A stretch of 64,000 bases of DNA, taken from positions 203,717-267,716 of the forward strand of contig JAQUPP010000002.1 of the NCBI GenBank assembly GCA_028716665.1. Reading direction: 5' to 3'. The stretch comes from Patescibacteria group bacterium. Its GTDB lineage: Bacteria; Patescibacteriota; Patescibacteriia; UBA2591; JAQUPP01. The first letter of the stretch is position 1. Every line of letters begins with the position of its first letter. This document shows, one piece after another, positions 204 through 15,664 of the stretch. The position numbers and the translations under genes were made by a program. Under the pieces are notes generated by a model that searched no databases, had not been told where the DNA came from, and saw only the letters and a program-made list of their open reading frames with translations.

Positions 204-737
204 ATGAGCAACTATATTTTGCAAAATTTAAATTTTATTATCTTCTCGTCGGTTTTATTTTTAACAATTCTGTTTATTATCATTTTATTCTCAATATTCA
301 TAAAAATAATTCATAAAGATAATATATCCGTAAAATTTAATGAACTCCATTTAAAAATTAGAGAGGAAATTAAGTACGCAGTAACTCCTAAATTTATAAA
401 CGTGTCGGCCGAGGTGAATGAGATTACTGATCTTGCGGTTGAAATATGGCGCATTGAACAGCGTATCGCAAAATCCGCTTCAAGCTTATCAGAACAACAA
501 CTTATGGGATTAGATAATTCAGTTCAAAAATTGAAACGGTATCTTTCAAAATACGATATTGAAATCTTGGATTATAAAAATACAAAATATAACGACGGTC
601 TTAATCTTGATATCCTGTCTATTGAAAAAAATTCTTCTTTACCTGAGCCAATCATAAAAGAAATAATCGAGCCAACTATTATGTGTAAGGGCCAGGTTGT
701 TCGTAAAGCAAAAATTATTTTAATAAACAATCATTAA
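204..737 (+). CDS. Membrane-anchored hypothetical protein (one N-terminal TM helix); possible GrpE-like nucleotide-exchange factor, first gene of the Hsp70 operon
   Basis: ORF is 10 bp upstream of the Hsp70 gene. It has an N-terminal hydrophobic helix and then a long helical region. The C-terminal stretch 'EPTIMCKGQVVRKAKIIL' resembles the GrpE C-terminal beta-domain pattern (GY..GR.lRpA.V.V). The similarity is weak and is my inference. Confidence 0.45.
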   Translation: MSNYILQNLNFIIFSSVLFLTILFIIILFSIFIKIIHKDNISVKFNELHLKIREEIKYAVTPKFINVSAEVNEITDLAVEIWRIEQRIAKSASSLSEQQLMGLDNSVQKLKRYLSKYDIEILDYKNTKYNDGLNLDILSIEKNSSLPEPIIKEIIEPTIMCKGQVVRKAKIILINNH

Positions 738-746
738 TTTGTTAAT

Positions 747-3251
747 ATGGCTAATCAACAAAACATTTCAATAGGTATTGATCTTGGAACAACCAATTCG
801 TCTGTTGCCATCAATAACAACGGTAACATCGAAATCATAAAAAGGGCGGGGGGCGTGGAATATACGCCGTCCGTTTTTGGCTTTAATAGAGATGAAAATA
901 AAGTAGTTGGCCAAAAGGCTTATGAGAGTTTTTATAGATCTGCAGACGTAAAAAACTACAAACCGGAAGTAAAAAGATTGATGGGCTCTTCAGAGAAGTT
1001 TCACTTCGAGAGAGTAAATATAGACATGGGGCCGGAAGAAATATCTGCTGAAATCCTTCAGAGCCTAAAAGAGGACATTCTAAGAAAATATCCAAACTTT
1101 AATACTGTAGCCGCCGTAATTACGGTTCCAGCCGCTTTCTCTGTATTACAGTCGGAGGCAACTAAACGGGCTGGTAATCTTGCCGGATTTAAACACGTAG
1201 TTTTATTACAAGAACCTATCGCTGCGGCTGCTGCTTACGGCTCCACAAATATCAAGAATGAAAACTGGCTCATTTACGACTTTGGTGGTGGCACATTTGA
1301 TGTTGCATTAATTGCTTCCAAAGACAGAGCGCTTTCAGTGCTTGGCCATAACGGTGACAATTTCCTTGGTGGTAAAAACTTTGATTTAGAGATTGTCGAT
1401 AAAATAATAGTACCAAAAATCTTAGAGAAGTTTTCCGTCAAAAACTTCAACAGGAATAATGAAAAGTATATAAGTGCCTTCTCTCGATTAAAGTTCTCTG
1501 CAGAGACGGCTAAAATAGAACTCTCTGAATATAATAAAACCTCAATCGTGGTAGAAAATGTCGGGAAGGACGATGAGGATAAGGAGATTTTTCTCTCCAT
1601 TAATTTTACGAGAAAAGAATTTGAAAATCTTATCAAACCAATGGTTGACCGCACTATCGAGCTTTCTAGGAAAACCCTGAAAGATGCCGGCATTAAGAGT
1701 GGTTCTGTTGCTAAAGTGATTCTCGTTGGTGGTCCGACTCAGATTCCATATATTCGAGAAAGAATAGAGAATGATCTCAAAATAACTGCTGATGCGTCTG
1801 TTGATCCTTTAACTGTCGTTGCGAGAGGTGCTTGCGTGTTTGGTATCGGCCAGAAGATTCCAAAGGAATTCCAAGAAAATGATGGTAAAAAACTCCGAGA
1901 AGGAACTCTTTCTATTGATCTAAATTACGATTCCGTTACTTCTGACACAGAGGCAACGATCGCGGGAATCATAGAAGACCTCAAAGATGCTAAGGATGAA
2001 TATTATGTACAAATTCAATCTGACAGTGGCTTTTATAACGGTTCAAAGAAAAAACTAAAAGGCGGTAAATTTTTTGACACAGTTTCTGTCGAGCCGAATA
2101 AGTCTAATGTTTACTGGATTTATCTTTTTGACAAAGAAGGTAATTCTGTTCCAGTTGATCAAGATTCTTTTACCATTACTCAGGGTCAGACGATATCGGG
2201 TATACCCTTGTCCCATTCGGTAAAAATAGTTGTGGTTCAAAAGGATTATACGAGGAATGTGGCTTTTAATATTTGTGACCTAGTTTTTGATAAAGGGTCA
2301 ATACTTCCTATTAAAAAAACTTTATATGTGTATAAAACATCAAGAAAGCTAAAGAAGGGCGAAGAGAATGATCTTGATATTATAGTGGTTGAAGGAGAAT
2401 CCGATATGCCAGATCGTAATGGATTTTTATGCAAAGTGGGTATCCCTGGCAAGGATCTACCCCATGATCTTCCCGAAGGAACTCCGGTAGAAATAACTGT
2501 TGTGATGAATGAATCACAAGAAGTTTTTGTTACTGCTCATATTCCACTGATTGATTTTACTGTTAATGCTCGCTCCACTTTTCACAATGAGACAATTGAT
2601 CTTAAGAATATCGAACAGGATTTAGAAATTCAAAAAGAAAGAGCAAAGGTTGTCTCTGAAAATTTGTCGCCCGATGAAAGAAAAACAATTGATAATGATA
2701 TTCAATCCGCCCAAACGAGCGTTAATAATTCTTCCATAGACGAAGATGAAAAAATGAAAGCGAATAAACAAATTAAAGATATTAAGATTGCGTTGGATAA
2801 AATTGAAAAAGAAAAGGAAATGCCTCAACTGGTTAAGGAATTTAAAGATGGTATTCAAGATACACAATCGATCATCAATGACTACGCAGATGAAAAAGAC
2901 AAAGATATAAACAATGATCAATTAAATAAGCTCATTAAAGAAGGAGAGAAAGCAATAGCCGATAATGATAAATCTCTTTTGATTCGGACCAATGAACAAA
3001 TTAACGAACTTCGCTCAAAAGCCGTTTATTCTAACCCGGCCACATGGATTCATCAGTTTAAAAAAATTACTGATAGCAAGCCAGACTTTACTAATGAAAA
3101 AGAAGCAAAGTATTATATTGAAAAGGGCAAAAGAGCGATTGAACTTGGTGATGTCGATGAGATAAAACGTTGCGTCCGTAATTTGTCGCTGTTACTCCCG
3201 TCTGATGTACAAGAAAAAATAAAAGATAATCTTTCGGGCATTACCCGCTAA
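747..3251 (+). CDS. Non-canonical Hsp70-family ATPase (DnaK-like nucleotide-binding domain plus about 460 aa of divergent C-terminal extension)
   Basis: Hsp70 NBD signatures are all present: phosphate-1 'IGIDLGTTNSSVA', connect-1 'QEPIAAAAAYG', phosphate-2 'YDFGGGTFDVAL', 'VLGHNGDNFLGG', and the adenosine motif 'VILVGGPTQIPYI'. At 834 aa it is longer than DnaK and lacks a canonical substrate-binding-domain sequence. Confidence 0.85.
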   Translation: MANQQNISIGIDLGTTNSSVAINNNGNIEIIKRAGGVEYTPSVFGFNRDENKVVGQKAYESFYRSADVKNYKPEVKRLMGSSEKFHFERVNIDMGPEEISAEILQSLKEDILRKYPNFNTVAAVITVPAAFSVLQSEATKRAGNLAGFKHVVLLQEPIAAAAAYGSTNIKNENWLIYDFGGGTFDVALIASKDRALSVLGHNGDNFLGGKNFDLEIVDKIIVPKILEKFSVKNFNRNNEKYISAFSRLKFSAETAKIELSEYNKTSIVVENVGKDDEDKEIFLSINFTRKEFENLIKPMVDRTIELSRKTLKDAGIKSGSVAKVILVGGPTQIPYIRERIENDLKITADASVDPLTVVARGACVFGIGQKIPKEFQENDGKKLREGTLSIDLNYDSVTSDTEATIAGIIEDLKDAKDEYYVQIQSDSGFYNGSKKKLKGGKFFDTVSVEPNKSNVYWIYLFDKEGNSVPVDQDSFTITQGQTISGIPLSHSVKIVVVQKDYTRNVAFNICDLVFDKGSILPIKKTLYVYKTSRKLKKGEENDLDIIVVEGESDMPDRNGFLCKVGIPGKDLPHDLPEGTPVEITVVMNESQEVFVTAHIPLIDFTVNARSTFHNETIDLKNIEQDLEIQKERAKVVSENLSPDERKTIDNDIQSAQTSVNNSSIDEDEKMKANKQIKDIKIALDKIEKEKEMPQLVKEFKDGIQDTQSIINDYADEKDKDINNDQLNKLIKEGEKAIADNDKSLLIRTNEQINELRSKAVYSNPATWIHQFKKITDSKPDFTNEKEAKYYIEKGKRAIELGDVDEIKRCVRNLSLLLPSDVQEKIKDNLSGITR

Positions 3252-3256
3252 ACCAT

Positions 3257-4891
3257 ATGTCATCTACACTCAAAAACAACGCATATCACATCCTTGGACT
3301 AGATACTTCTGCTAGTGAGAAAGATATTCTTAAACGCTCAAAGGAGATTATTAATCGTCTTAAGGCTGATGACACTCCTGACTACGATTTAGATATTGGA
3401 TTGTTTAAAGATTTTCGGACAGAGGATGCAGTAAAAGATGCCCTGCAGCGACTCCAAGCTTCCAAGAAACGGATCAAAGAATATTTCTTTTGGTTTCAGA
3501 TAGCAGATAGCGTCGATGAGCAGGTACTGGGTCTGTTTAAATTTAAAGATTACTTGAATGCCATTCGCACTTGGCAGAATGTGGCCGAAGGTCAAAGTAC
3601 GAAAGCTTTCTCTTATAAGAAGAATCTTGCTATTTTGTATTGCCTTGTACTCTCTGCCGAGGATGATAAAGACTATCTAAGAAGTTCCTTAGTTGCATGG
3701 AAAGAACTTATAGACTCAGATAAATTTTGGACTTTTTTTTCTGAAGTCTACAAACTTCATGATGAACAAACTGCCAGCGAAGATATTATTTTTGATTTCA
3801 AAAAGCATGTAGTAAGTTATCTGGCCGATATTTATACGGATTTATATCAAACCCATAAAAATGTAGATTATATTAGTCAATTTCAAAAAGTTTTTTCAGT
3901 AAAAGGTGAGCGAATAGAAAAAAACGTTTTAGAACCAGCATACCAAATGATTAATAATGCCGTTGATGAACTTGAAAAAATGGAAGTGAGTAAGGATAGT
4001 ATATTTGATAAAGAAGAGTCAGAAACAATCAAGAGGCTTATTACTACAATACAGAAGGAACTCAATCAACTGATTGATTTAAGACTCTATGACGATAGTC
4101 AGACCAAAATAATGCGGGATCGCTCGGCTAATGCCTTACGATCTATTGCTTTGGATTTACACAATAACTTAAGCGAGCTTGATAAATCTCGAGGACTTTT
4201 AGAGGTAGCAATTAAGTTCGCTGGTATGGAATCCTTGAAATACGAACTTCAAGGTCAACTCGAACAAATCCAAAAAAATATCAAAGACGATGCAGAAAAT
4301 TCTCTTACCATAGACGTACCGGGCACGTTTGGGAGAGGTACGGTTATTTTTAAGAATAACTATCTTGAATACAATAACAAGAAAATATTCTATAAAGACG
4401 CGACAAGTATTTCTTATCATGCCCATTCGCAGTCAATAAACTTTATTCCGGCTTCACAATCGTTCAGTTACATGGTTGCTTCGCCAAATGAGACTATTTC
4501 ATTCTCATTTGGAACTACCCTCTATATTGGTCACAAAACAATGCAAGAGGTGTGGGGAAAGTTGATTGGGCTTTCAGAGGGACTAATTGAGTCACATATT
4601 ATAGAAAGTATGGTCGATCAAATTTTTGATCGCGATAAACCCATAACCATTGGTCGTATTGAATTCTCCAAACAAGGATATTCACAAACCAAATCCAAGC
4701 TATTTGGCAAGAGCGAGAAAGAGATAGTTTACTGGACGGATACTATTTACACCCCAAAGTTCAGTTCCGGAATGGTAGTTTTATGGAAAGATAAAAACGG
4801 AGTGAGTCAACAATTTACCACAATAGCGATGTCGACGCCAAATGCGGTTGTAATACCAGGGTTAGTTAAAGCATGCATTAATCGTCTATAA
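3257..4891 (+). CDS. J-like domain protein (degenerate HPD->TPD) with a large helical C-terminal domain
   Basis: The N-terminus 'AYHILGLDTSASEKDILKRSKEIINRLKADDTPD' aligns to J-domain helices I-II and the HPD loop, with His replaced by Thr. The gene starts 6 bp after the Hsp70 stop. It has no DnaJ zinc finger or G/F region. Confidence 0.65.
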   Translation: MSSTLKNNAYHILGLDTSASEKDILKRSKEIINRLKADDTPDYDLDIGLFKDFRTEDAVKDALQRLQASKKRIKEYFFWFQIADSVDEQVLGLFKFKDYLNAIRTWQNVAEGQSTKAFSYKKNLAILYCLVLSAEDDKDYLRSSLVAWKELIDSDKFWTFFSEVYKLHDEQTASEDIIFDFKKHVVSYLADIYTDLYQTHKNVDYISQFQKVFSVKGERIEKNVLEPAYQMINNAVDELEKMEVSKDSIFDKEESETIKRLITTIQKELNQLIDLRLYDDSQTKIMRDRSANALRSIALDLHNNLSELDKSRGLLEVAIKFAGMESLKYELQGQLEQIQKNIKDDAENSLTIDVPGTFGRGTVIFKNNYLEYNNKKIFYKDATSISYHAHSQSINFIPASQSFSYMVASPNETISFSFGTTLYIGHKTMQEVWGKLIGLSEGLIESHIIESMVDQIFDRDKPITIGRIEFSKQGYSQTKSKLFGKSEKEIVYWTDTIYTPKFSSGMVVLWKDKNGVSQQFTTIAMSTPNAVVIPGLVKACINRL

Positions 4892-4895
4892 ATAC

Positions 4896-5549
4896 ATGGA
4901 AAATGATAAAAAACATTTGGATATCGACCTTGAATTCCTTGATAAAAAGGAGCCGACTAGAGTTACACCGCCTAAGCTAGAATCTCCTAAGGGTAGCGAA
5001 CCAAACTGGCGATATTACGATAAAGACAAGGCTAATGCTAATTCCGGCTCTGGTAAAAAATATAAATGGAAAAATATTTTAATAATAGGTGGCGTTGTTA
5101 TATTCTTTGGCTGGGTTATTTTTTCAAATAGTAACTCAAAGAATGATACTAATACCGGAAGCTATACACCACCTAGTGTAAATCAAGTGTCGTCGAATAG
5201 TAATACGGTTGTGATAGGTGAATATAGATGTTTAAGTTATAACTACGATAGAGCAGTCGCACTTACTCCCAGTGAAAGTGAACAGCAAATAGATACCGCC
5301 AGAAATGACTTGGAATATAAAAGTAATGAGCTTGATCGTTTGAAAAATAAAATTGATAGTTCTTATGTGGATGAATACTCATCGCAATATGAGATTAATC
5401 AATACAATGAGACGGTGAACGATTATAATATTAAACTTACTTCATATAAGCGAGACGAGGCAAATTTTAATTCGCGGGTTGAAAGATATAATACCCAAAT
5501 TGAAGCCCATAATAATTATTTAAGAAATAATTGCACACTTAATAGATAA
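4896..5549 (+). CDS. Single-pass membrane protein with a C-terminal coiled coil
   Basis: TM helix 'ILIIGGVVIFFGWVIF' is followed by an Asn/Ser-rich linker and a heptad-like helical region. The gene sits in 5-bp gaps between the J-like protein and the AAA ATPase. Confidence 0.55.
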   Translation: MENDKKHLDIDLEFLDKKEPTRVTPPKLESPKGSEPNWRYYDKDKANANSGSGKKYKWKNILIIGGVVIFFGWVIFSNSNSKNDTNTGSYTPPSVNQVSSNSNTVVIGEYRCLSYNYDRAVALTPSESEQQIDTARNDLEYKSNELDRLKNKIDSSYVDEYSSQYEINQYNETVNDYNIKLTSYKRDEANFNSRVERYNTQIEAHNNYLRNNCTLNR

Positions 5550-5553
5550 AGTT

Positions 5554-6630
5554 ATGACAACATTAACGAAACCAATTCTCTATAATGGATTCAAAGTCAA
5601 AGACGGGTTAACCGTCAAAAATCGCATTGAGCGAATTTTCTTTACCGAAGTATATGCGTTATCTGACGGATCTTTTTTATACTTATTTTTTAATCTTAAA
5701 CCAAACGAGATATTTGATCGTCGCGAAAAATACGACCTTGTTAGAATAAAAAAAGAAGGAGAGGAATTACCTGGTGTTATTGTTAAGGATTATTCGAATC
5801 GTCAATTATTAACAGCTATTGAAGATCTAACTACGACAAAAGGTTTTGATTGTGTCGCTGGAATGGATAAATTAAAAACTTTTTTAATTAAAAAAGTTAT
5901 TGAACCACTTCGAAATCCTGAAAAATTTAAGAAATACAGACTCTCAATTCCAAACGGTATTTTACTGTACGGACCACCCGGATGCGGAAAAACATTTATT
6001 GTCAACAAACTGGCAGAAGAATTGGGATACAACTTTGTTGAATTAAAACCCTCATCGGTTGCAGTTCCTTATGTTCACGGTGCTGTTAATAAGATTGCCG
6101 AACTTTTTGAAAGGGCAAAATTACAAGCACCGTCAATTGTATTTATTGATGATGCCGAAGCACTTATACCAAAAACAGAAGAGCTATCATTTAGTGCGGA
6201 TATAAAAAAAGAAGAAATTAACCAATTTAAACTAGAACTAAATAATATTGGAGAGAAGAAAATTCTTGTTGTTTATGCAACAAACTGGCCAGAAATGATT
6301 GATTTAGCAATACTTAGAGGCGGAAGAACGGATTATAAGATATATGTTCCTGCGCCAGATTTTGATGCTAGAAAGGGACTATTTATAAATTTTCTTTCAG
6401 GAAGACCCTGTGGCAAAGAAATTGATATAGAAAAATTAGCAAAGATGACAAATAATTATGCGAGTACCGATATTGAACTTATAGTTAAAAATGCGGCTTA
6501 CGTGGCATTAGAGTTGGAAAAAAATATTGATGAAAAAATGTTAATTAAATCAATAAACAAACTTAATTCATCAATTTCGCCAGAACAAATTCGACATTAC
6601 GAACAACTTAGTGGTATGGAAAGGTGGTAG
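5554..6630 (+). CDS. AAA+ ATPase (classic AAA clade, FtsH/CDC48/Vps4-like ATPase domain)
   Basis: Walker A 'LLYGPPGCGKTF', Walker B 'IVFIDDAEAL', and the second region of homology 'ATNWPEMIDLAILRGGRTDYKIYVPAPD'. An N-terminal domain of about 110 aa is not recognised. Confidence 0.85.
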   Translation: MTTLTKPILYNGFKVKDGLTVKNRIERIFFTEVYALSDGSFLYLFFNLKPNEIFDRREKYDLVRIKKEGEELPGVIVKDYSNRQLLTAIEDLTTTKGFDCVAGMDKLKTFLIKKVIEPLRNPEKFKKYRLSIPNGILLYGPPGCGKTFIVNKLAEELGYNFVELKPSSVAVPYVHGAVNKIAELFERAKLQAPSIVFIDDAEALIPKTEELSFSADIKKEEINQFKLELNNIGEKKILVVYATNWPEMIDLAILRGGRTDYKIYVPAPDFDARKGLFINFLSGRPCGKEIDIEKLAKMTNNYASTDIELIVKNAAYVALELEKNIDEKMLIKSINKLNSSISPEQIRHYEQLSGMERW

Positions 6631-6703
6631 TTTTAGGTGATGACGCACCAATGAAATTGGTACTGGTATCTTTAGGGGAATTAGCATTATAACTTTTAAA
6701 CAA

Positions 6704-7525
6704 ATGAAGAACTGTCAATTTTGTAAAAATTCTATCACCGACAATAATGACATTTGTCCTTATTGTCGGCGGGTTTTGGTTGAAAGAATTTATTCTAATT
6801 CAAAACACACATCACACACTGTCAATCAAGGCGCAAAAATCTCGATTAATAGAAAATTAAAAAATTATTTTAAGCAACTAAGCAATAAATTTAAAAAAAT
6901 AAAATGGAATAATTTTAAAAAATATATTCCAATTCTTGCTCTACTACTGTTAATTATTTTTATCAGCCTCCAAAAAGAAAAAAATAACACGCATACAACT
7001 TATAGTCATACTCCAGTTTCGGTTATTCCAAGCAACGAGAATTCATCGATTAAATTGAGTGATACTCCAGTGGCTCAAATCAAAGATCCCAAAAACTATA
7101 TTTCATTGCCCAATGGCACACCTCTATCCAAAAATACTTATTATTTTAATGGATTGGGACAATTAAAAATAGACAATGGGACGAGCCTAGATGCTATAGC
7201 TAAACTAGTAGATATCACAACCAATAAATCGATTCTTACAGTATATATAAAAGCTAATAGTACTTATGATATTAATAAAATATTAGATGGCAATTATAAA
7301 CTATTCTTTAATCTCGGAAATGATTGGAGCACAGAAGTTAAGGCGTTCGCCGTAAATTCTAGCTATGAAGTTTTTAAAGAAAATTTTGACTTTACTACAT
7401 CAGAGTATAGAGAAGGCGATTATATACGCACACGATATATAACTTTTAGCGTAACATTAAATCCTGTAATTGGCGGACAAGCTAAAACAGAAGAAATTAA
7501 CGCGGTAGAATTCGGTGGCTATTAA
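6704..7525 (+). CDS. Zinc-ribbon / TM / extracytoplasmic-domain protein
   Basis: N-terminal 'CQFCKNS...CPYCRR' zinc ribbon, one TM helix 'ILALLLLIIFISL', and a C-terminal beta-rich domain of about 180 aa. Confidence 0.55.
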   Translation: MKNCQFCKNSITDNNDICPYCRRVLVERIYSNSKHTSHTVNQGAKISINRKLKNYFKQLSNKFKKIKWNNFKKYIPILALLLLIIFISLQKEKNNTHTTYSHTPVSVIPSNENSSIKLSDTPVAQIKDPKNYISLPNGTPLSKNTYYFNGLGQLKIDNGTSLDAIAKLVDITTNKSILTVYIKANSTYDINKILDGNYKLFFNLGNDWSTEVKAFAVNSSYEVFKENFDFTTSEYREGDYIRTRYITFSVTLNPVIGGQAKTEEINAVEFGGY

Positions 7526-7648
7526 AAATAGATAAGAATAAAATAAGATAATACGGTTTACTTTAAAGAGGTGAGATAAAATCTCACCTCTTTAAATTGA
7601 ATAAATACAAAAATCTGCTATAATGAAAACAAAGTTTAGAAAATAAAT

Positions 7649-8761
7649 ATGACAAAAATATATTTTACAAGATATTTTATAGAAACTCCTAACTCTGTTG
7701 GTAATCGTAGAAATATAGAATCAGGTAAGATTTTGGGGTTGAAATTTAAGCTAGGTAGTAATGAAATATCTTTCTATGATCATGATAAAGGTCTTTCTTC
7801 TGATTGTTATATTGAAGCAGACTCCTTGAACGATGCTGAGAATAAATCGAAGGTTTTTATAGAAAACATTTTAAACTTAATTGATCTCTCAATGTCATCT
7901 GCCTCAGCATCTCCCCAATTTATAACATCTTATAATGCTTCTTCTAATTTGCCCATCAGAGAATATAAGCAAATTTTATATGTTCCTATACGAGAAAGAA
8001 ATATCGCAGTGATTGATCAAGATTTCTTCGGCAAATTATTTAACCTTCTTGATAAAAATAAAGACAAAAGAACGGAAATGGCTATATCTTGGTTAAGAAA
8101 GGGGTACCTTGAGCAAAAACATGTTGATAAATTTATTGCTTTTTGGACTGGATTAGAATCTATAAATGAGTTATTATGTGATTTATTTATTATTCCTCAG
8201 GAGGAAAGGAAATTAAAATGTAAAAAATGCGGTGAAGTCCTTCATCCAATTACAACCGGAATTAAAAAATTATTTATTGATGAGATAAAAATTAACGATA
8301 AAAAATTTGAAGATATAAGAAAAGCAAGGGGCAAACTTTTACATGGTGGTCCATTAGATAATATTTTTATTAATGAAATTAAAGAATATAATCCTATTGT
8401 TAAAAAAACTTTAATAGTGGGATTAGGTAAATTATTAGGGATGGAAGGAAAAGATATAGATAAAATAATTAAACAAAAATCTAATTTATATAATGAAACA
8501 ATCAGATTTATTATTAAGGCGAATTTAGTAAATTTTGAACCGCCCAAAATTAACGAATTTGGCAAACAACCTAAAATAGATTTAATTGAGGAAAATTTAT
8601 TAAATCGTATAATAGATAGCAAAGGAAAACTGAGTTTAAAATTAGAAACAACGTTAAAATTAAATGCCAATTTTAATAATATAACCTTTGAAGTATGGGG
8701 CGAGGATAATACTTGTATAAAAAGTATCAAGATTGATGATATCAAGAAAGTAACTGAATAA
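7649..8761 (+). CDS. Hypothetical protein with a candidate HEPN-like Rx4H motif and a CxxC pair
   Basis: 'DIRKARGKLLHGG' contains R-x4-H, and 'CKKCGEVLHP' is present. The gene has its own promoter (TTGAAT-16-TATAAT at about 7596-7623) after a terminator hairpin, and the region is very AT-rich. Confidence 0.5.
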   Translation: MTKIYFTRYFIETPNSVGNRRNIESGKILGLKFKLGSNEISFYDHDKGLSSDCYIEADSLNDAENKSKVFIENILNLIDLSMSSASASPQFITSYNASSNLPIREYKQILYVPIRERNIAVIDQDFFGKLFNLLDKNKDKRTEMAISWLRKGYLEQKHVDKFIAFWTGLESINELLCDLFIIPQEERKLKCKKCGEVLHPITTGIKKLFIDEIKINDKKFEDIRKARGKLLHGGPLDNIFINEIKEYNPIVKKTLIVGLGKLLGMEGKDIDKIIKQKSNLYNETIRFIIKANLVNFEPPKINEFGKQPKIDLIEENLLNRIIDSKGKLSLKLETTLKLNANFNNITFEVWGEDNTCIKSIKIDDIKKVTE

Positions 8762-8786
8762 ACAATAGAAAAATATATTAAGTAAT

Positions 8787-9404
8787 ATGACCATAGAAAA
8801 TTCTTTAAAACATTTAGAATCTTTAAAAGAAAGTTACATCAAGATAACCAAGGAGATGCTACAAGCGAATAATGGTAATTTATACTCATTTGATTTGTTT
8901 ATTCTTGGAATAATCAAGAGGTCTATTTTGTTGACAACGGGATTTTGTACATTAGTGCGACAGAATAATTTTTTAAGCGCAGCCCCGCTTATTCGATTAC
9001 ATCTAGACAATCTATTACAGATGCACGCGGCTTTTATTGTGAAAAATTCAGATGATTTTTCGTTTAAAAAGATAAAGGGAGAGCAAACAAATAATTTAAA
9101 AGACTTAAAGGGGAATAAAATGACGGATAATTACTTAGCAATGTCACTCTCAGAAATAAAAGAAACTTCGTGGGTTTTAAATTTATACAAAGAAACATCA
9201 AAATTTGTGCACATCAGTGATAAACATATTTTGAGTGTAGTAGAGAAATTAGATGAAGGCGGTGTTATTGATTTTGTTATTTCAGATAAACAAACAATCC
9301 CAGAGAAACACGCCACTGAAGCTGCACAAGCTATGATAAGTATTACTGAACAATTATTTCGGTATGTGTATGGATGGATACATGTAAAAAATAAAAAGTC
9401 ATAA
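8787..9404 (+). CDS. Hypothetical protein
   Basis: ORF in the AT-rich block with no recognisable motifs. Confidence 0.45.
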   Translation: MTIENSLKHLESLKESYIKITKEMLQANNGNLYSFDLFILGIIKRSILLTTGFCTLVRQNNFLSAAPLIRLHLDNLLQMHAAFIVKNSDDFSFKKIKGEQTNNLKDLKGNKMTDNYLAMSLSEIKETSWVLNLYKETSKFVHISDKHILSVVEKLDEGGVIDFVISDKQTIPEKHATEAAQAMISITEQLFRYVYGWIHVKNKKS

Positions 9405-9455
9405 GTGTTTTATGGCTGACTGGCCAACAAAAAATAATTAAATAATTTAAGACAT

Positions 9456-10211
9456 ATGAATATACAAAAACCATTTTATAAGATGTTTAGGCCAAATAAA
9501 CAGAAGGATGGATATTTTGGGGATTACGTTATTGATTATAGAAACATTTTGGATTGGAGTTCCCCGATTAGGGCCTTTAATTTAATAATTGAAGATTTTA
9601 AAAAAATTTGTGAATATATTGATCCAAGTGATGAGAATACTGCGGTTTATTCTCATAGATTATACGAAATATTTATTAGAACTTGCACGGAATTAGAGTC
9701 CAATATGAAGGCAATATTAAAGGCAAATGGATATGTAAAAACTGGGAGATGGTGGGATATGACTGATTACAAAAAGTTAGAACCTGTATTAAAATTATCT
9801 GATTATGAAGTGTTAATAAATTTTTGGAACAATGGTAGGGGAATGAGTGGTGGTTGCGTCCCTTTTAGAAATTGGGCACAGAGCAAGAGTGGTATACTAG
9901 TTTGGTATCAAGATTACAATAATGTAAAACACTCTAGGGAAGAAAACTTTCATTTAGCTTCTTTGGGTAATTTACTTGACTCAATCTGTGGGTTATTTAT
10001 AATTTTGTTTTCTCAATATGGTGTTCAAATTTTTAATCCCTACCAAATTGTAAAGAGTTATGACGAAGATGATTTGGGTAAAATAATTTCTAAAGATTCC
10101 TTTATATTTAGTATCAAACCACCCGAATGGCGCGAAAACGAAAAATACGATTTTGATTGGGATATAATTAGAGCAGAGAAAAATCCTTTTCAGGAGTTTA
10201 AATCATTTTAA
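9456..10211 (+). CDS. Hypothetical protein
   Basis: ORF in the AT-rich block with no recognisable motifs. Confidence 0.45.
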   Translation: MNIQKPFYKMFRPNKQKDGYFGDYVIDYRNILDWSSPIRAFNLIIEDFKKICEYIDPSDENTAVYSHRLYEIFIRTCTELESNMKAILKANGYVKTGRWWDMTDYKKLEPVLKLSDYEVLINFWNNGRGMSGGCVPFRNWAQSKSGILVWYQDYNNVKHSREENFHLASLGNLLDSICGLFIILFSQYGVQIFNPYQIVKSYDEDDLGKIISKDSFIFSIKPPEWRENEKYDFDWDIIRAEKNPFQEFKSF

Positions 10212-10231: not shown

Positions 10232-10957
10232 ATGATCGAAATATATTTTGATGGTGCTTGCGAGCCAGTAAATCCCGGTGGTACTGCAAGTTATGGTTAT
10301 TTAATTAAGAGGGACAATCAAATTATTGAGCGCGGTTCAGGTATTATAGGCAAAGGAGAAGGAATGACAAACAATGTGGCCGAGTATTATGGTTTGATCG
10401 AAGGAATAAAAGCTCTTAAAAAATTAAGAATTGAAGAAAAGGTAATGATTTATGGTGATAGTAAAATGGTGTGTTGTATTGTTGCGAAAGAATGGGGATG
10501 GAAAAAGAAAAAGACGGTATGGATGCCCCATGAAACAGCTTTACATTTAAAAAAGTTACTTGATGAAGCCTTAAAATATTTAGAGGGTATGGATTATAAT
10601 ATTCAATGGGTGACGAGAGAGAAGAATCAAGAAGCTGATGATTTATCGAAAGAACCACTTATTAAAGCGGGTATTATTAAATCTATTTACCCTAAATATA
10701 ATTTTACAAAGAAAATAGATAAAGAAAAGGAAAAGCATATCATTAAATCTAAAATTAAGAAAAAACCCCAAGAAGGGGATGCTTGTCCTAAAAATTGTGG
10801 TGGAATTCTTTATTGGGCAAACAGCAAAATGACCCCCAAAAAAATGCGGAGGATTTATCATTTTGAAAAATGGCTTAAGTGTAATAAATGTAGGACTGTT
10901 TTCTTTGATGAAAAATATAAAATTATTCATCAAAATGAAACTAAATCATTATTTTAG
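10232..10957 (+). CDS. RNase H-like (RNase HI fold) protein with a C-terminal zinc ribbon
   Basis: 'IYFDGACEP' supplies the catalytic Asp. 'AEYYGLIEGI' supplies the Glu. 'IYGDSKMV' supplies the second Asp. 'QEADDLSK' contributes the last acidic residue. The C-terminus carries 'CPKNCGG...CNKCR'. Confidence 0.7.
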   Translation: MIEIYFDGACEPVNPGGTASYGYLIKRDNQIIERGSGIIGKGEGMTNNVAEYYGLIEGIKALKKLRIEEKVMIYGDSKMVCCIVAKEWGWKKKKTVWMPHETALHLKKLLDEALKYLEGMDYNIQWVTREKNQEADDLSKEPLIKAGIIKSIYPKYNFTKKIDKEKEKHIIKSKIKKKPQEGDACPKNCGGILYWANSKMTPKKMRRIYHFEKWLKCNKCRTVFFDEKYKIIHQNETKSLF

Positions 10958-11348: not shown

Positions 11349-12920
11349 ATGGATAATAACTTATTACAAAAATTAAAAGATTGGCGGAAAGCGAAAGCTG
11401 AGGCAGAAGGAGTCCCAGTTTTTAGAGTTTTTTCTAATGCTGTCATAGAAGCTATTGCTCAATTTAAACCAAAAGACAAAGAAGCTCTTTTCTTGATAAA
11501 AGGTATCCGTGATAGAAAATATAATAAATATGGTGAAGCTATATTGGCTTTAGTTAATGGAGGGCAAGAAGGGCCGGAATTTTTTGCGGATAATTTTATA
11601 AAAGACGAAGAAAGTAAGCCATTTTCAGTTAGTGACTATCTTAATTTTCTTAATAATCAATTGAGTAAAGATACAGCGCGAATTCAAGGAGAGATTAGTA
11701 GTTTAGATATAAGAGACAAAGTAGTTTACTTTTCTTTAAAAGATTCTAAAGATGAAAGTGTTATTAACTGCCTTATTTGGAAAAATGTTTACGAATTAAA
11801 CGGAGTTGAATTTGAAGTAGGAATGGAGATTATATTAAGTGGTTGTCCAGATATCTATAAACCCAGTGGCCGTTTATCATTTAAAGCTTCGTCTGTAGAA
11901 TTAGTTGGTGAAGGGGCATTAAAAATTGCATATGAAAAACTTAAAGCGAAATTACAAAAAGAAGGCTTATTTGATGAAGCAAGAAAGAAACCTATTCCTT
12001 TATATCCTAATAAGATTGGCTTAATTACTTCGAAAAGTGGTGCTGTGATAGCAGATTTTTCTACTAACATAGGAAGATTTGGATATAAAATATCTTTGAT
12101 AGATTCAAGAGTTGAGGGTCAGTTGGCAACAGAAGAATTATTAAACTCTATAAAAACATTTAGAAATAAAGATATTGATGTTCTTGTTATTATTCGAGGT
12201 GGAGGTTCCATGGAATCTTTTTTACCATTTAATAATGAAGTTCTTATTAAAGAAATAGCGAGTTTCCCCGTCCCAGTTCTAGTTGGAATTGGACACGAAA
12301 AAGATGTTTCTCTTTTGGCATTGGCGTCTGATATGATGTTTTCTACACCCACAGCCGTTGCCAATTATCTAAATGAATCATGGGAGAAAGCAGAATCAGT
12401 AATAATCTTATCAGAACAAAAAGTCTTTAGAAAATTTCAAAATACAATTCAAGAAAATAAAGATTATATTAGAGACAGTTTGGATATAATGAAAAATACT
12501 TTCCAAAAAATATTTAATGATTTTTCAAAGGCCCAAGAATCATTAAAAATTGGCTTTAAATCAATTAAGGATCAGATGGTTGATATTGATAGAAGAATTA
12601 ATGGAGTTCTTATACCAGTATTTAGAAAAATAAACTTTTCCATATCAGGCATTAGAAATAACATATCCGATTCCATTATAAAAGAAATTTTTGAAGGATT
12701 TATAGATGCTAAAAATAAAATTAAGGAATCACTAATATCATATCAAAAACAACTCATCAATAATAACCCTAAAAGACAATTAAAATTAGGATATAGTATC
12801 GTAACAAAAAATGGTCGAATTTTGAAAACAACCAGTCAAATACAAAAAGGAGATATTGTTAGCGTTGGATTAAGTGAGGGCGTATTTGATTCAGAGGTCA
12901 AAATTATTAAAAATAATTAA
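11349..12920 (+). CDS. xseA: Exodeoxyribonuclease VII large subunit with an N-terminal HRDC domain
   Basis: OB-fold region 'VYFSLKDSKDESVINCLIWKN' and catalytic core 'LVIIRGGGSMESFLPFNNE...VLVGIGHEKDVSLLALASDMMFSTPTAVA' match XseA. The first 75 aa or so, 'LLQKLKDWRKAKAEAEGVPVFRVFSNAVIEAIAQFKP...KYGEAILALV', align well with the RecQ/RNase D HRDC domain. Confidence 0.85.
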   Translation: MDNNLLQKLKDWRKAKAEAEGVPVFRVFSNAVIEAIAQFKPKDKEALFLIKGIRDRKYNKYGEAILALVNGGQEGPEFFADNFIKDEESKPFSVSDYLNFLNNQLSKDTARIQGEISSLDIRDKVVYFSLKDSKDESVINCLIWKNVYELNGVEFEVGMEIILSGCPDIYKPSGRLSFKASSVELVGEGALKIAYEKLKAKLQKEGLFDEARKKPIPLYPNKIGLITSKSGAVIADFSTNIGRFGYKISLIDSRVEGQLATEELLNSIKTFRNKDIDVLVIIRGGGSMESFLPFNNEVLIKEIASFPVPVLVGIGHEKDVSLLALASDMMFSTPTAVANYLNESWEKAESVIILSEQKVFRKFQNTIQENKDYIRDSLDIMKNTFQKIFNDFSKAQESLKIGFKSIKDQMVDIDRRINGVLIPVFRKINFSISGIRNNISDSIIKEIFEGFIDAKNKIKESLISYQKQLINNNPKRQLKLGYSIVTKNGRILKTTSQIQKGDIVSVGLSEGVFDSEVKIIKNN

Positions 12921-12929
12921 TATAAAAAT

Positions 12930-13136
12930 ATGACAGATCCAAAAATTAATTTAAAAGAGTCATTAGGTAGGTTAAATAATATCGTTGAATGGTTTAATGA
13001 ACAAGAAGAAGTAGATGTTGAAATTGGTTTAGAAAAAGTTAAAGAAGGAGCAGAGCTAATAAAAGTTTGCAGAAAAAGATTATCAGAAGTCGAAAATGAG
13101 TTTACGGAGATACAGAGAGAAATAGACAAAGAGTAA
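12930..13136 (+). CDS. xseB: Exodeoxyribonuclease VII small subunit
   Basis: 68-aa helical protein immediately downstream of xseA. 'LEESLGRLNNIVEWFNEQ...GAELIKVCRKRLSEVE' matches the XseB pattern. Confidence 0.8.
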   Translation: MTDPKINLKESLGRLNNIVEWFNEQEEVDVEIGLEKVKEGAELIKVCRKRLSEVENEFTEIQREIDKE

Positions 13137-13213
13137 TTTTTAAGTGGCAGAAAGAAATTGAGCAGGAGCTTGTGGAAATGTTCTAAAATAGGCAAATTAT
13201 AAACTGAAATTTT

Positions 13214-14467
13214 ATGAATAAACATACAACAACAATTATTCCTATTGAGCCATGGCTTTATCATTCGCCTAAACTAAAACTCAAAGGATCAATTATAGAT
13301 ATAGGATTAATATGTGAATCTTTAATTTATTATGAAAAAATATTTATTAATATAGATATCCTTTCTAAAAACTTTTTATTTAATGAAATTATAAAATGGT
13401 TTAAACAACAGGATGCATATAAAGATTTTTTACGACTTTTGGACGAGGGTATTATAAATTTTGTTTATCATTCTTTTTTTACATCTCCTATTTTTGATCC
13501 TAGAAATAATACTTATAGTATCTGGAATCTTGAGGACGAAGAATCAAAAGAAAAAGATATTTTTAATTCTAGAGTTTTATATAACGATGAATTGAATAAA
13601 ATAATTAAAGGAAGAGAAAGACAACAACTATATAGAGTAATTGAAAATAAAGTCATTGAATTTAGGGCAGACAAATTCAAAGATGCAGTTGAAAATGCTA
13701 GAGCTGATTACGAAAAAGTAGATACTTGTAATATTATTGTTCAAAGTTTTGTTGATGAATTATATAAAGAATTTGATTTCGGAAAACCACCTGTTATAAG
13801 TAGTAAAATAAATAAAATGGGAGAAAAAATTAATATTTCCTGGAATATTAATTTTGATGAATTAAATAAAAAAACGAATAATAAATTTAAAATAAATCCA
13901 GGGATTCCACTTCATGGAATTGCTCATTGCAACAGGATAATTAAAACAGCGTCGCTTATAGAATCGGATATATGTTTGGGAGAAGTTATGAGCAGTTTAG
14001 TCAATAATAAATTATCTGAAATTAACTTAAAGAATAATGATAAAGTTTTGAATATTATTAAAGAATTAAATCAAGAAGTAGAATTTCCAGATATTAGGGG
14101 TTTGGTAAATAATAACTTAATAACCTTTAAGGATATTCTTGAAATCCGGAAAAAAGCATTGAAGTTTAGGAAATGGCTACAGTGTGAAGGAGAAAGAGAT
14201 AGGGATGCAATAATTGCTTATCATAACGAGGTGGCAGAGGAAGCTAAATTAGAAAAATTTGGCAAAAGTATTTTATCGTTAACAGGTGTAGTGACAGGAG
14301 GATTAATAGGGACAATTGGTGGTCCTATTGGCGGAATAGCGGGAGCAACGATGGGGTATGGAGTAGATAAATTTATTTCTTTAATAAATCAAGAATGGAA
14401 GCCAATAGTTTTTGGAAAATGGCTAACAAAGTATTCTGATAAAATTCAAAAAACGAGACATCCATAA
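13214..14467 (+). CDS. Hypothetical protein with a C-terminal glycine-zipper segment
   Basis: 417-aa ORF. The C-terminus 'GVVTGGLIGTIGGPIGGIAGATMGYGV' is a glycine zipper. No other motifs recognised. Confidence 0.5.
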   Translation: MNKHTTTIIPIEPWLYHSPKLKLKGSIIDIGLICESLIYYEKIFINIDILSKNFLFNEIIKWFKQQDAYKDFLRLLDEGIINFVYHSFFTSPIFDPRNNTYSIWNLEDEESKEKDIFNSRVLYNDELNKIIKGRERQQLYRVIENKVIEFRADKFKDAVENARADYEKVDTCNIIVQSFVDELYKEFDFGKPPVISSKINKMGEKINISWNINFDELNKKTNNKFKINPGIPLHGIAHCNRIIKTASLIESDICLGEVMSSLVNNKLSEINLKNNDKVLNIIKELNQEVEFPDIRGLVNNNLITFKDILEIRKKALKFRKWLQCEGERDRDAIIAYHNEVAEEAKLEKFGKSILSLTGVVTGGLIGTIGGPIGGIAGATMGYGVDKFISLINQEWKPIVFGKWLTKYSDKIQKTRHP

Positions 14468-14593
14468 TTTCCTTTTATATTGTCTCATTTTGTTTGTTTG
14501 AATCCGACCCGTCCCTGTCAGTAGAATCATTAGGCCGACCCTCAGGAACGCTTGCGTGGTCTAGATGCGAAAGCGTTCTGAAACCCGAGAGGG

Positions 14594-14660
14594 GAGCCAA
14601 AAAATAACCGCTTATTCAAGCGGTTATTTTTTTATACTCGTTGTGGAAATTAGAACTTTT
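14594..14660. repeat. Direct repeat copy B (terminator module, paralogous to 11092-11158)
   Basis: Sequence identity read directly. Followed by the promoter TTGACA-17-TGcTATTCT at 14670-14698. Confidence 0.8.
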
Positions 14661-14740
14661 TTAATGAAATTGACAAAAGTGAAAAAATATGCTATTCTAA
14701 TAATAGATAAATAATCAATTAAAAGATTTTTTAAATAAAA

Positions 14741-15190
14741 ATGATACATATGACGCTACAAAACAAAGTAAAAGATAACGAAGGTTCGGTGATGAAGGGC
14801 GGAGGAATTGTTGCTAAAAAAGAAGATGGCAAAATTTATATTCTGATGCTTTATCGCGGCAATCATGAAGACTGGTCATTTCCCAAGGGCCATACAGAAC
14901 ACGGCGAAACTGTTCAACAAACGGTTATTAGAGAAGTGGAGGAAGAAGGTGAAATAAAATCAGAAATTATCAAAGAAATTACTCCCTTTAAATATTTTAA
15001 TACTAACAGCAATGAAGAAATTATTTGTTATATGTATTTATTAAGACCAATATCCGGCGAGATCAAACCGGAGTATAAAGGCGATAAGGTGGAATGGGTG
15101 CCATTGGCAGAAGTCGGGAAAAGAATCAGTTACGCAAACCTTAGGGATTATTTTAATAAAATCGTTGGAGAAGTGGTTGATTTAATTTAA
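14741..15190 (+). CDS. NUDIX hydrolase
   Basis: Nudix box 'GHTEHGETVQQTVIREVEEEGEI' (GX5EX7REUXEEXGU). Confidence 0.8.
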   Translation: MIHMTLQNKVKDNEGSVMKGGGIVAKKEDGKIYILMLYRGNHEDWSFPKGHTEHGETVQQTVIREVEEEGEIKSEIIKEITPFKYFNTNSNEEIICYMYLLRPISGEIKPEYKGDKVEWVPLAEVGKRISYANLRDYFNKIVGEVVDLI

Positions 15191-15199
15191 ATTTTTTAT

Positions 15200-15664
15200 A
15201 TGATTAAATTTCGTCCGCATTCCAAGGAGGAGATACCGTTTCGACTCAAATGGCTTAATGATAAAAAAGTCGTTAATTTTATTTTTGATAATTTTAAACA
15301 ACCTACGACACTGGCAAAACAAAAGGTGTGGTTTAAAAATTACGAAAATAATCCTTGTAAGAATTTTTTTACGATTTTAAACGATGATAAACCTATTGGT
15401 TTTATGGGTTTATCAAAAATTGATACGAAAGAAAAAAGAGCAGAAGTTTTTATTTTAATCGGAGAAGGGGAATATCGTGGTAAGGGCGTAGGCAGAATTT
15501 CCATGAATTATCTTATTGATATTGCTTTTAAAAAATTGAAACTCAAACGTTTGATTTTAGAGGTTAATAAGCTGAATGATCCCGCCATTAATCTTTATCA
15601 GTCGCTTGGTTTTAAAAAAACAAAAGAAAAAGGCAAGGAGATTGAAATGATATTAAAAAAGTAG
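15200..15664 (+). CDS. GNAT family N-acetyltransferase
   Basis: Acetyl-CoA-binding motif 'YRGKGVGRISMNYLIDIAF'. Confidence 0.7.
   Translation: MIKFRPHSKEEIPFRLKWLNDKKVVNFIFDNFKQPTTLAKQKVWFKNYENNPCKNFFTILNDDKPIGFMGLSKIDTKEKRAEVFILIGEGEYRGKGVGRISMNYLIDIAFKKLKLKRLILEVNKLNDPAINLYQSLGFKKTKEKGKEIEMILKK

Follow-up and report, generated by a model that had tools for sequence, protein, structure and literature searches.

The 64-kb window analysed here (the whole stretch of 64,000 nucleotides (nt), taken from contig JAQUPP010000002.1 of a Patescibacteria group bacterium) carries near its start a compact gene cassette at 204-6630, which belongs to the Patescibacteria/DPANN-type branch of a widespread, uncharacterised Hsp70 system with its own cofactor set. 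Six consecutive open reading frames (ORFs), all on the + strand, occupy 204-7525, exactly where a first-pass annotation made from the sequence had placed them. The close packing described there also stands, the gaps (given as 5-10 bp and 74 bp) measuring 9, 5, 4, 4 and 73 nt from O1 to O6:

204-737, + strand: O1, 177 amino acids (aa), putative membrane-anchored GrpE-like protein
747-3251, + strand: O2, 834 aa, non-canonical Hsp70
3257-4891, + strand: O3, 544 aa, candidate adaptor with a constant N-terminal module
4896-5549, + strand: O4, 217 aa, bitopic membrane protein with an N-terminal tag
5554-6630, + strand: O5, 358 aa, AAA ATPase
6704-7525, + strand: O6, 273 aa, zinc-ribbon membrane protein

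The constant core of the cassette is O1-O2-O3-O5, with O4 variable. The genes have a GC content of 0.31-0.40, in a window that averages ~0.35, and scans for promoters and terminators showed no enrichment over shuffled sequence and were uninformative for operon boundaries.

The centrepiece is O2, for which sequence profiles, alignments and an AlphaFold2 model (predicted local distance difference test (pLDDT) 75.5) delimit the following parts:

nt 771-1844 (aa 9-366), + strand: nucleotide-binding domain (NBD), Pfam HSP70 E=4e-73
aa 370-400, + strand: disordered linker in the AlphaFold2 model (pLDDT <50)
nt 1950-2186 (aa ~402-480), + strand: family-specific beta insert in the AlphaFold2 model
nt 2220-2576 (aa ~492-610), + strand: region resembling the beta part of the substrate-binding domain (SBD-beta), from AlphaFold2 and Foldseek
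nt 2601-3248 (aa 619-834), + strand: helical lid and extension in the AlphaFold2 model
nt 3231-3248 (aa 829-834), + strand: conserved tail LSGITR, from the alignment

The NBD is as textbook as the first-pass annotation had it: its best match among structures in the PDB is DnaK (E=4e-71), the motifs DLGTTNS, K76, QEP and DFGGGTFD are invariant in the family, and the equivalents of phosphate-1, phosphate-2, K70 and E171 are kept. Nevertheless, the protein falls below all curated NCBIfam cut-offs for DnaK and HscA (266.9 versus 648 bits for NF001413, and 259.4 versus 822.6 bits for TIGR02350). The same annotation had described a long C-terminus unlike that of DnaK, and here the structural comparison disagrees, since a DnaK-type SBD-beta and lid can be recognised with Foldseek, accompanied by an insert and an extension. 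With the O2 model as query, a lid-less DnaK consisting of NBD and SBD-beta (5obu, 518 residues) aligned over 645 columns (E=1e-33) and full-length DnaK (~600 residues) over ~790-813 columns (E~1e-30), while chains containing only an NBD gave 366 columns (E=3e-26) and ranked below both. HMMER and hhalign likewise place aa ~509-633 collinear with the DnaK SBD-beta, weakly so (hhalign E~1e-3). Directly after the NBD, the conserved hydrophobic DVLLLD linker is absent and the sequence reads GIGQKIPKEFQEND...; between NBD and SBD come the disordered stretch and the beta insert, the latter put at ~100 aa and modelled as a beta domain of ~80 residues, and the helical extension adds ~110 aa. O2 is therefore best described, as modelled, as an NBD followed by a family-specific insert, SBD-beta, lid and helical extension. 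HscC was considered as a closer relative and rejected, as it aligns to the NBD only (aa 1-369).

The surface that canonical Hsp70s offer to their J-proteins has been rewritten in this family. Y145/N147/D148 and R167/N170/T173 of DnaK, which reportedly contact the J-domain in work of Gassler, Suh and their colleagues from 1998, read A/S/V and V/Q/I in O2, and these positions are replaced in every branch of the O2 family (candidate phyla radiation (CPR), archaeal, Bacteroidota and Vibrio). E. coli HscC keeps Y145, D148, R167, N170 and T173, with S in place of N147, and a second archaeal Hsp70 adjoining one of the cassettes keeps Y145, N147, D148 and R167. At the other end of the protein, the LSGITR tail is nearly invariant in the CPR and archaeal branch and absent from the Bacteroidota and Vibrio branches; by analogy with EEVD, which serves co-chaperones with TPR domains, it might be a docking tail, O3 having a TPR-like scaffold.

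O3 matches no family in Pfam, NCBIfam, PADLOC or PHROG. Its parts are as follows:

nt 3257-3496 (aa 1-80), + strand: helical bundle with possibly J-like topology, without HPD
nt 3509-4297 (aa 85-347), + strand: TPR/14-3-3-like helical scaffold
nt 4304-4585 (aa 350-443), + strand: PH-like beta module 1
nt 4643-4885 (aa 463-543), + strand: PH-like beta module 2

The first-pass annotation had read the N-terminus as a J-domain whose catalytic HPD had become TPD, a proposal that did not survive comparison across the family. HPD is absent from the N-module of all the aligned relatives (52 close, 22 syntenic and 61 divergent), among which the T of 'TPD' varies (T/V/N/L/I/Y/H/A), as does the D (D/S/T/E/V/N/K), with only the P conserved; the motif that the family does share is L-K-I-[DG]-[ED]-phi-P-x-[YF]-[DE]-x-D. 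None of the 83 orthologs (22 + 61) matches Pfam DnaJ (PF00226), and we therefore reject 'TPD' as a degenerate HPD. A J-like fold is only a possibility: the pattern NAYxILGL...KR.KEI...A.Q.L..PK.R..E.FFWF lines up in order with helices I, II and III/IV of J-domains; the AlphaFold2 model (pLDDT 63-78) places helices at residues 9-13, 21-37, 56-67 and 69-79 and leaves an 18-residue loop between the second and the third; hhalign with the J-domain of E. coli DnaJ gave a probability of 18% over 26 columns; and the profile search of the PDB returned DNAJC5 at E=0.42 and the TPR of PP5 at E=0.04. Kinship with DjlB or DjlC was rejected (hhalign probability 0.1-0.2%). The earlier statement that the cassette has no DnaJ zinc finger or G/F region holds, none occurring among the family matches of its proteins.

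What characterises O3 is a constant front and an exchangeable rear. The N-terminal ~345 residues are constant, whereas the syntenic loci carry at least three exchanged forms of the C-terminus: tandem PH-like modules, a 'GKP...GDT(L/V)Y' region with a hydrophobic helix, and a helical region with a hydrophobic helix. More distant members carry TPR arrays and Zn ribbons. An exhaustive profile search returned 1,287 clusters at 50% identity, 211 of them at E<=1e-30, and most match positions 1-345 only.

The small protein encoded at the head of the cassette, O1, had been likened to GrpE because of its C-terminus, and the family bears this out. Two segments can be defined:

nt 213-326 (aa 4-41), + strand: membrane anchor, from hydropathy
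nt 483-719 (aa 94-172), + strand: GrpE-like region, Pfam GrpE

The window copy by itself scores below the Pfam gathering threshold (20.1 bits, E=5.5e-4, against 25.8, over positions 85-162 of the 165-position profile), but 25 of 26 syntenic orthologs match GrpE individually, the best with E=2.8e-9, so that the similarity is a property of the family. A transmembrane (TM) segment takes the place of the long N-terminal helix of GrpE. Averaged over the 26 orthologs, the net charge of the TM flanks is 0.0 on the N-terminal side and +2.4 on the C-terminal side, which by the positive-inside rule puts the GrpE-like domain in the cytoplasm. The assignment of O1 as a membrane-anchored GrpE-like protein is thus supported at the level of sequence, and it would make O1 a putative membrane-tethered nucleotide-exchange factor.

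O5 is an ATPase of the classical AAA clade (Pfam AAA E=1.4e-27, together with AAA_lid_3), with these elements:

aa 1-95, + strand: family-specific N-domain
nt 5971-5994 (aa 140-147), + strand: Walker A, GPPGCGKT
aa 199-200, + strand: Walker B acidic pair, D-D here and D-E in the family alignment
R255 and R258, + strand: arginines of the second region of homology (SRH), invariant in the family

Invariant across its family are GPPGCGKT, N244 (sensor 1), R255 and R258, and the pore loop reads [YWF]-[VI]-H-G. The nearest families are CDC48, FtsH and PAN, yet O5 lies well below the curated cut-offs (CDC48 164.8 versus 802.7, FtsH 151.4 versus 600 and IteA 83.5 versus 510 bits). Where the first-pass annotation listed a classic Walker A, Walker B and SRH, the Walker A and SRH are indeed present and the Walker B departs from the norm. 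Residues 241-247 deviate as well, reading VVYATNWPEMID against a family consensus of VVGATNRPHMID; judging from these departures, ATPase activity may be reduced in this genome. The best match in PADLOC is IetA (E=1e-25); identity with IetA was rejected because the score against the NCBIfam IteA model (83.5 bits, cut-off 510) marks the match as generic similarity among classical AAA proteins.

The sixth gene had been counted as a member of the system. Its product contains:

N-terminal, + strand: Zn ribbon
nt 6908-6982 (aa 69-93), + strand: TM segment from hydropathy, with an extracytoplasmic domain beyond

Homologs of O6 occur at only three of the 31 surveyed loci (L004, where the gene starts 8 nt past the AAA gene, L021 and L023; loci are cited by number where needed), and O6 has neither the N-terminal tag described below (by regular expression or hidden Markov model (HMM)) nor any Pfam, NCBIfam, PADLOC or PHROG match. 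It is an occasional neighbour and not a core component.

O4, in turn, exposed a feature that links otherwise unrelated proteins. The window copy is a bitopic membrane protein with a Ser/Thr-rich linker and a Cys-flanked coiled coil on the outside:

nt 4914-4949 (aa 7-18), + strand: cytoplasmic N-terminal tag HLDIDLEFLDKK, from the alignment
nt 5067-5135 (aa 58-80), + strand: TM segment, from hydropathy
Tag peptide: MENDKKHLDIDLEFLDKKEP

A tag of the approximate form (K)HLDIDLEFLDKK, beginning 4-7 residues past an in-frame Met, opens the genes found at the O4 position. When all loci and the window were translated in six frames (1.1 million residues), the tag expression matched 37 times, and 36 of these matches are N-termini of + strand ORFs between O3 and O5, the remaining one being spurious; a tag HMM adds diverged copies at L021, L023 and L027. 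The carriers belong to at least four unrelated classes of membrane protein. Besides the coiled-coil type, these include members of the RDD family (E<=1e-14), proteins with a Yip1 domain (E=1.5e-10) and others that match Cys-rich extracellular modules weakly and below threshold. CPR-branch cassettes hold 0-2 tagged genes, some loci carrying two. The presence of one tag on every O4-position membrane protein is a new finding. Because the tag alternates hydrophobic and acidic residues, it could form an extended peptide, able to lie in the Hsp70 SBD or to add a strand to a beta domain. Weak coiled-coil matches of O4 to IcmG/DotF and to ABC-3C CTD12 were discarded, as they lie far below the cut-offs.

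A pattern-based survey with one genome per species (185,579 species representatives) returned 31 hits. As the first-pass annotation had suggested looking for, gene order is shared: O1-O2-O3-(O4)-O5 is kept in essentially all of the 31 loci that are long enough, a recurrence well above what chance would give, and it is seen again in further metagenomic contigs. The hosts comprise at least 10 Patescibacteria classes, Omnitrophota, and bins assigned to Thaumarchaeota and Nanoarchaeota. Full-length relatives at 60-87% identity number in the hundreds for O2 as well as for O3 (in Harrison-, Peregrini-, Pace-, Andersen-, Morani-, Woese-, Doudna-, Uhr-, Sacchari-, Gracili-, Yanofsky- and Falkowbacteria, and in Omnitrophota), while in the archaeal bins O2 is 57-60% and O3 37-40% identical to the window copies. 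Many of these loci are contigs of metagenome-assembled genomes, and the short ones binned to Akkermansia, Bdellovibrionales, Bacteroidales and Pseudomonadota may be mis-binned. The flanks differ from locus to locus, which, together with the high identity across deep lineages, points to horizontal transfer.

Residence in a given host can be long. The four-gene core is retained at L039, in a UGA-recoded host where O3 is 24% identical, and the Hsp70 gene there contains 49 in-frame TGA codons, which implies enough time in this lineage for the cassette to have taken on the host code. In L003, L010 and L039 every in-frame Hsp70 stop is TGA and there are no other internal stops; the three genes are therefore intact genes of UGA-recoded lineages, and pseudogenisation was rejected:

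L039, 580-3084: recoded Hsp70 gene
L003, 10001-12514: recoded Hsp70 gene
L010, 1202-3715: recoded Hsp70 gene

In a Gracilibacteria locus (L014 7484-9999, identical in L015) the Hsp70 is split into parts of 168 and 683 aa in different frames, which reflects either a real frameshift or an assembly error, as TGA recoding does not explain it; the same sequence also occurs in a contig binned to Bacteroidales, which suggests mis-binning. At four loci an S49 (SppA-type) peptidase-like gene lies a few genes downstream (L021 16579-17493, L023 15188-16024, L024 13402-14334 and L026 9000-9848), and it might be an accessory component of a Paceibacterota/Parcubacteria-type sub-branch.

These data bear directly on the simplest account of the cassette, namely that it is a divergent housekeeping grpE-dnaK-dnaJ operon. 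The gene order superficially mimics such an operon, and neither a canonical dnaK nor any second Hsp70 lies within the 64-kb window. We regard this account as highly improbable, as every curated DnaK cut-off is failed (266.9 versus 648 bits at NF001413), no HPD partner is encoded and the J-contact residues are replaced, an insert of ~100 aa sits at the position of the conserved linker, and the distribution is rare and patchy with near-identity across domains. Moreover, a second Hsp70 co-occurs at L020 (Thaumarchaeota), where a 680-aa protein with a Pfam HSP70 match that includes the SBD (3149-5191, E=7e-125) is encoded 2 kb upstream of the cassette.

The flanks repeatedly contain genes of mobile elements, tallied here as raw co-occurrence counts. 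A large serine recombinase lies within 10 kb at 10 loci (by BLAST clustering), a terminase large subunit at 6 (phrog_38, E=2e-79) and a ParB-methyltransferase at 6, and a polytopic DUF6804 protein (~104 aa) adjoins the cassette at 18. Other recurrent neighbours are phage-type and other DNA methyltransferases, Fic/SoFic, RadC, UvrD, tyrosine integrases, nucleases and lysin-type amidases. Downstream of the L020 cassette, 12864-16843 encodes a HerA/TrwB-like ATPase (862 aa) and a tyrosine integrase, because of which this locus looks like an integrated element. One could accordingly see the cassette as cargo that a temperate phage or integrative element uses for virion or transfer assembly, host takeover, superinfection exclusion or anti-defence. 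The recombinase, terminase and methyltransferase counts, the ATPase and integrase after the archaeal copy, the occurrence of the Haliscomenobacter and Vibrio copies (see below) on plasmids, and the match of phage Hsp70-like families in PHROGs to the NBD all speak for such a role. We nonetheless consider it quite doubtful: depending on the locus, the recombinase/terminase block lies to one side of the cassette or the other and in either orientation, and the cassette is therefore no constant part of a single element; no relative was found in IMG/VR or INPHARED; O1, O3, O4 and O6 match no PHROG; and the copies in the window and on the Lacibacter chromosome come without phage structural genes.

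The system extends beyond the CPR and archaea. The C-terminal half of O2 matches Hsp70 family proteins (832-841 aa) that Haliscomenobacter hydrossis and Vibrio rumoiensis carry on plasmids, and the Bacteroidota branch numbers at least 120 clusters at >=80% identity, including one on the chromosome of Lacibacter sediminis. The partners recur in altered form in this sister branch. A 571-aa 'CFI-box-CTERM' protein is a homolog of the O3 N-module (hhalign 97.6%), and the AAA ATPases are homologs of O5 (hhalign 100%). In Bacteroidota these ATPases bear a fused Ser/Thr protein-kinase domain at the N-terminus, and a TerB-like protein is encoded next. A 114-aa Vibrio protein is a homolog of the O1 GrpE-like domain (94%) without a TM segment, and Bacteroidota proteins of ~300 aa have an O1-like C-terminus (25-84% probability); one of the latter is annotated 'septum formation initiator'. 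DUF6804 is common to this branch as well (E=7e-9). The Bacteroidota genes concerned are:

L043, 13067-14884: kinase-AAA fusion
L044, 13166-14965: kinase-AAA fusion
L045, 12532-14361: kinase-AAA fusion
L041, 10173-11987: kinase-AAA fusion
L041, 6728-7627: O1-like protein of ~300 aa
L043, 9077-9979: O1-like protein of ~300 aa
L044, 9081-9983: O1-like protein of ~300 aa
L045, 9062-9970: O1-like protein of ~300 aa

Defence and mobile-element genes surround all four sampled Bacteroidota loci. The first context contains BREX brxL/pglZ and an McrBC-like pair; the second AbiEii, a BrxL fragment and an SNF2 helicase; the third GmrSD, an integrase, transposases and a reverse transcriptase inside the cassette; and the fourth a reverse transcriptase, RmuC and 1,750-aa DEAD plus SNF2 helicases. 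The reverse transcriptase of L045 (RVT_1, 503 aa) is encoded between the O3-like protein and the protein of 300 aa. The Vibrio copy is located near a tyrosine recombinase, a RelE/ParE pair and a group II intron. The first-pass annotation had suggested checking for defence islands; the four sampled Bacteroidota loci have such defence or mobile-element surroundings, and in this genome the cassette adjoins dnaG and rpoD.

This last circumstance speaks for a specialised chaperone that has no part in conflict, devoted to the biogenesis, quality control or extraction of envelope proteins close to the membrane (for example of episymbiont surface structures) and acquired horizontally because it is useful. 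The core parts are all of chaperone or membrane type, with no nuclease, protease or recognisable toxin among them, the CPR branch occurs mainly in lineages of small cells that depend on a host, the tagged proteins extend domains beyond the cytoplasm, and HscC with its tail-anchored J-proteins provides a precedent (PMC8215388). Such a role would, however, sit uneasily with an occurrence as rare and patchy as 31 in 185,579 species representatives, with very high identity across phyla and domains, with the recurrence of recombinases, terminase, methyltransferases, BREX, McrBC, AbiE and GmrSD nearby, and with exchangeable O3 C-termini and tagged partners, which are hallmarks of conflict systems. 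On this evidence we rate the non-conflict chaperone as unlikely, if less so than the mobile-element cargo.

Comparison with characterised machineries helps to delineate what is new. From the canonical DnaK system the cassette retains the phosphate-binding and catalytic motifs of O2, SBD-beta and lid by fold, a GrpE-like partner and an operon order reminiscent of grpE-dnaK-dnaJ. It differs in that O2 (~835 aa) has an insert and an extension, fails the DnaK cut-offs and has its J-contacts replaced, in that HPD J-protein, Zn finger and G/F region are all absent, in that the GrpE-like protein is short and membrane-anchored, and in that an AAA ATPase and tagged membrane proteins are added. In the mitochondrial PAM motor (mtHsp70, Tim44, Pam18/Pam16 and Mge1), tethered co-factors localise Hsp70 cycling at the membrane; the motor includes a GrpE-type nucleotide-exchange factor, and its Pam16 is a J-like protein without HPD that regulates rather than stimulates. 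By functional analogy, the cassette Hsp70 would likewise be localised to the membrane through a tethered co-factor. There is, however, no sequence link beyond Hsp70 and GrpE, no translocon is identified in the cassette, and here it is the exchange factor itself that is anchored and an AAA ATPase that is added. The pairing of an Hsp70 with a substrate-threading AAA+ ATPase recalls the Hsp70-ClpB/Hsp104 disaggregase, except that O5 is of the single-ring classical clade (CDC48/FtsH/PAN/Vps4-like) and not a two-ring Clp/Hsp100 protein with an M-domain, and that the cassette encodes the pairing in one mobile operon together with membrane proteins.

Reviews distinguish DnaK, HscA and HscC among prokaryotic Hsp70 types (PMC8215388). 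HscC is a specialised and sporadic Hsp70 whose DjlB/DjlC partners, encoded nearby, are anchored by a C-terminal helix, which points to a membrane-directed function (PMC8215388). A hydrophobic helix likewise closes some O3 variants, but O3 is not detectably related to DjlB/DjlC (hhalign <1%), HscC (550-580 aa) matches the O2 NBD only, and HscC systems have HPD J-domains, no exchange factor and no AAA partner. The GAP1-N2 GTPase-centric conflict systems of Actinobacteria and Firmicutes (Kaur et al. 2020) include HSP70, GrpE and FNIII/DnaJ or TPR proteins (PMC7159879) and also have a dedicated Hsp70 and GrpE within a predicted conflict operon. No GTPase is present in the window cassette or in any cassette examined, in which the AAA ATPase belongs to the core. 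CoCoNuT systems are derived from McrBC (McrB-like NxD GTPase and McrC/DUF2357) and contain CnuD with a degenerate Hsp70 ATPase (PMC11090510), whereas our cassette has no McrB or McrC homolog and the O2 ATPase motifs are intact. Predicted conflict systems with an Hsp70 are of these two kinds, and the cassette's gene set corresponds to neither. Finally, the anti-phage system IetAS combines the AAA ATPase IetA, the best PADLOC match of O5, with the protease IetS; the cassette encodes neither an IetS-type protease nor any protease domain.

Taking these observations together, we favour, with modest confidence, the view that the cassette encodes a horizontally mobile, membrane-associated Hsp70/AAA+ remodelling system, probably conflict-related and not housekeeping. 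The first-pass annotation had arrived at a similar overall picture, of which the cassette itself and the GrpE-like protein stand, and the TPD J-domain and the non-DnaK C-terminus of the Hsp70 do not. Links to the membrane come from the TM segment of O1, the C-terminal hydrophobic segments of O3 variants and DUF6804. In the mechanism that we envisage, O1 would anchor nucleotide exchange, and hence Hsp70 cycling, at the membrane. O3 would replace the J-protein as targeting and regulatory factor; since both sides of the interface are missing, it would not act through the canonical HPD-R167 contact, and its variable C-terminus (tandem PH-like modules, TPR arrays, Zn ribbons or a membrane anchor) may select the client, the location or the trigger. 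The tagged membrane proteins could be dedicated clients or effectors, whose tag the Hsp70 SBD, O3 or the AAA N-domain would recognise, and the AAA ring may thread, extract or remodel them. The whole would serve as an accessory conflict system with a membrane change as its output, used in defence against phages or mobile elements or when elements compete with one another. Our preference for a conflict or defence role comes from the mobility and patchiness of the cassette, from the swapping of O3 C-termini and of tagged partners, and from its location in islands. A more elaborate version, which we put forward tentatively and with clearly less conviction, is a chaperone-based immune system in which the J-uncoupled Hsp70 and the AAA+ unfoldase would act as sensor and transducer, the O3 C-terminus would set specificity, and tagged membrane effectors (in CPR) or the kinase-AAA fusion with TerB and DUF6804 (in Bacteroidota) would bring about phage or mobile-element exclusion or abortive infection.

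A number of points weigh against the conflict-related remodelling system. The defence or conflict role is, to begin with, argued from guilt by association. In this genome the cassette follows housekeeping neighbours (dnaG, an acetyltransferase gene, rpoD and a 23S-rRNA-IVP gene), and the recombinase, terminase, methyltransferase and DUF6804 genes that accompany it elsewhere are absent from the 64-kb window. No relative of O3 was found in IMG/VR, INPHARED (50,697 phages) or PLSDB, and the C-terminal half of the Hsp70 matched nothing in IMG/VR, no sequenced phage and only 2 of 72,556 plasmids. PADLOC (2023) has no model for O1-O4, and its IetA match to O5 is generic only. Among the components, the exchange-factor role of O1 is drawn from a similarity of ~80 residues, and a search of PDB sequences with the O1 family profile did not find GrpE, so that the GrpE support comes solely from the Pfam profile. 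The Bacteroidota O1-like proteins start with an apparent cleavable Sec signal peptide, by which the domain would be exported away from the cytoplasmic Hsp70; this is hard to reconcile with nucleotide exchange, and it leaves a conflict of topology between a CPR O1 with its C-terminus inside, a Vibrio homolog without a TM segment and Bacteroidota proteins with a signal peptide. The tag HMM finds nothing at the archaeal loci and L039, whose cassettes lack O4, and the tag is likewise absent from the Bacteroidota and Vibrio branches. The D-D pair in the Walker B of this copy of O5 adds to the list.

Downstream of the cassette, the first-pass annotation had noted an AT-rich block of orphan genes, and such a block is present: from 7 to 14 kb the GC content is 0.27-0.31 and no ORF matches a family. 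At 7649-10211, where the window is richest in AT (GC 0.27-0.31), three orphan ORFs of 370, 205 and 251 aa follow one another. The 205-aa protein has a DUF5677 match below threshold (E=9e-5), none of the three matches PADLOC, NCBIfam or PHROG, and a promoter-like site with an extended -10 element lies just upstream of the first (7597-7624). In two other assemblies of the same organism the contig ends directly after the cassette, suggesting a strain-variable island. The orphans are followed at 10232-10957 by an RNase HI gene (NCBIfam Thermoprotei-type RNase HI E=2.8e-32; Pfam RNase_H E=2e-11), whose product has a C-terminal extension of ~100 aa with CxxC...CxxC spacing and a weak Zn_ribbon_5 match. 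Further away, a MacAB-like efflux module at 30581-34935 comprises an HlyD-type membrane-fusion protein (626 aa), an ABC ATPase (237 aa), a MacB/FtsX permease (407 aa) and a DUF5666 protein (150 aa), and it is preceded at 28743-29336 by a gene whose 197-aa product is a sigma-70-family factor reduced to regions 2 and 4. The 626-aa ORF (30581-32461) was also considered as a possible dnaK and rejected, being HlyD-like.

DnaK derivatives other than the recognised types have been described as unexplored 'dark matter' (PMC13580251), and the literature that we searched contains no description of the cassette system. One such derivative is now defined as a complete, conserved multi-gene system. As the sister branch includes cultured hosts (Lacibacter sediminis, Haliscomenobacter hydrossis and Vibrio rumoiensis), the question of its role is directly testable. 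Should that role be defence, this would be the first defence system built around the Hsp70 cycle; should it not, the family would offer a natural experiment in how an Hsp70 can be regulated without an HPD J-domain.

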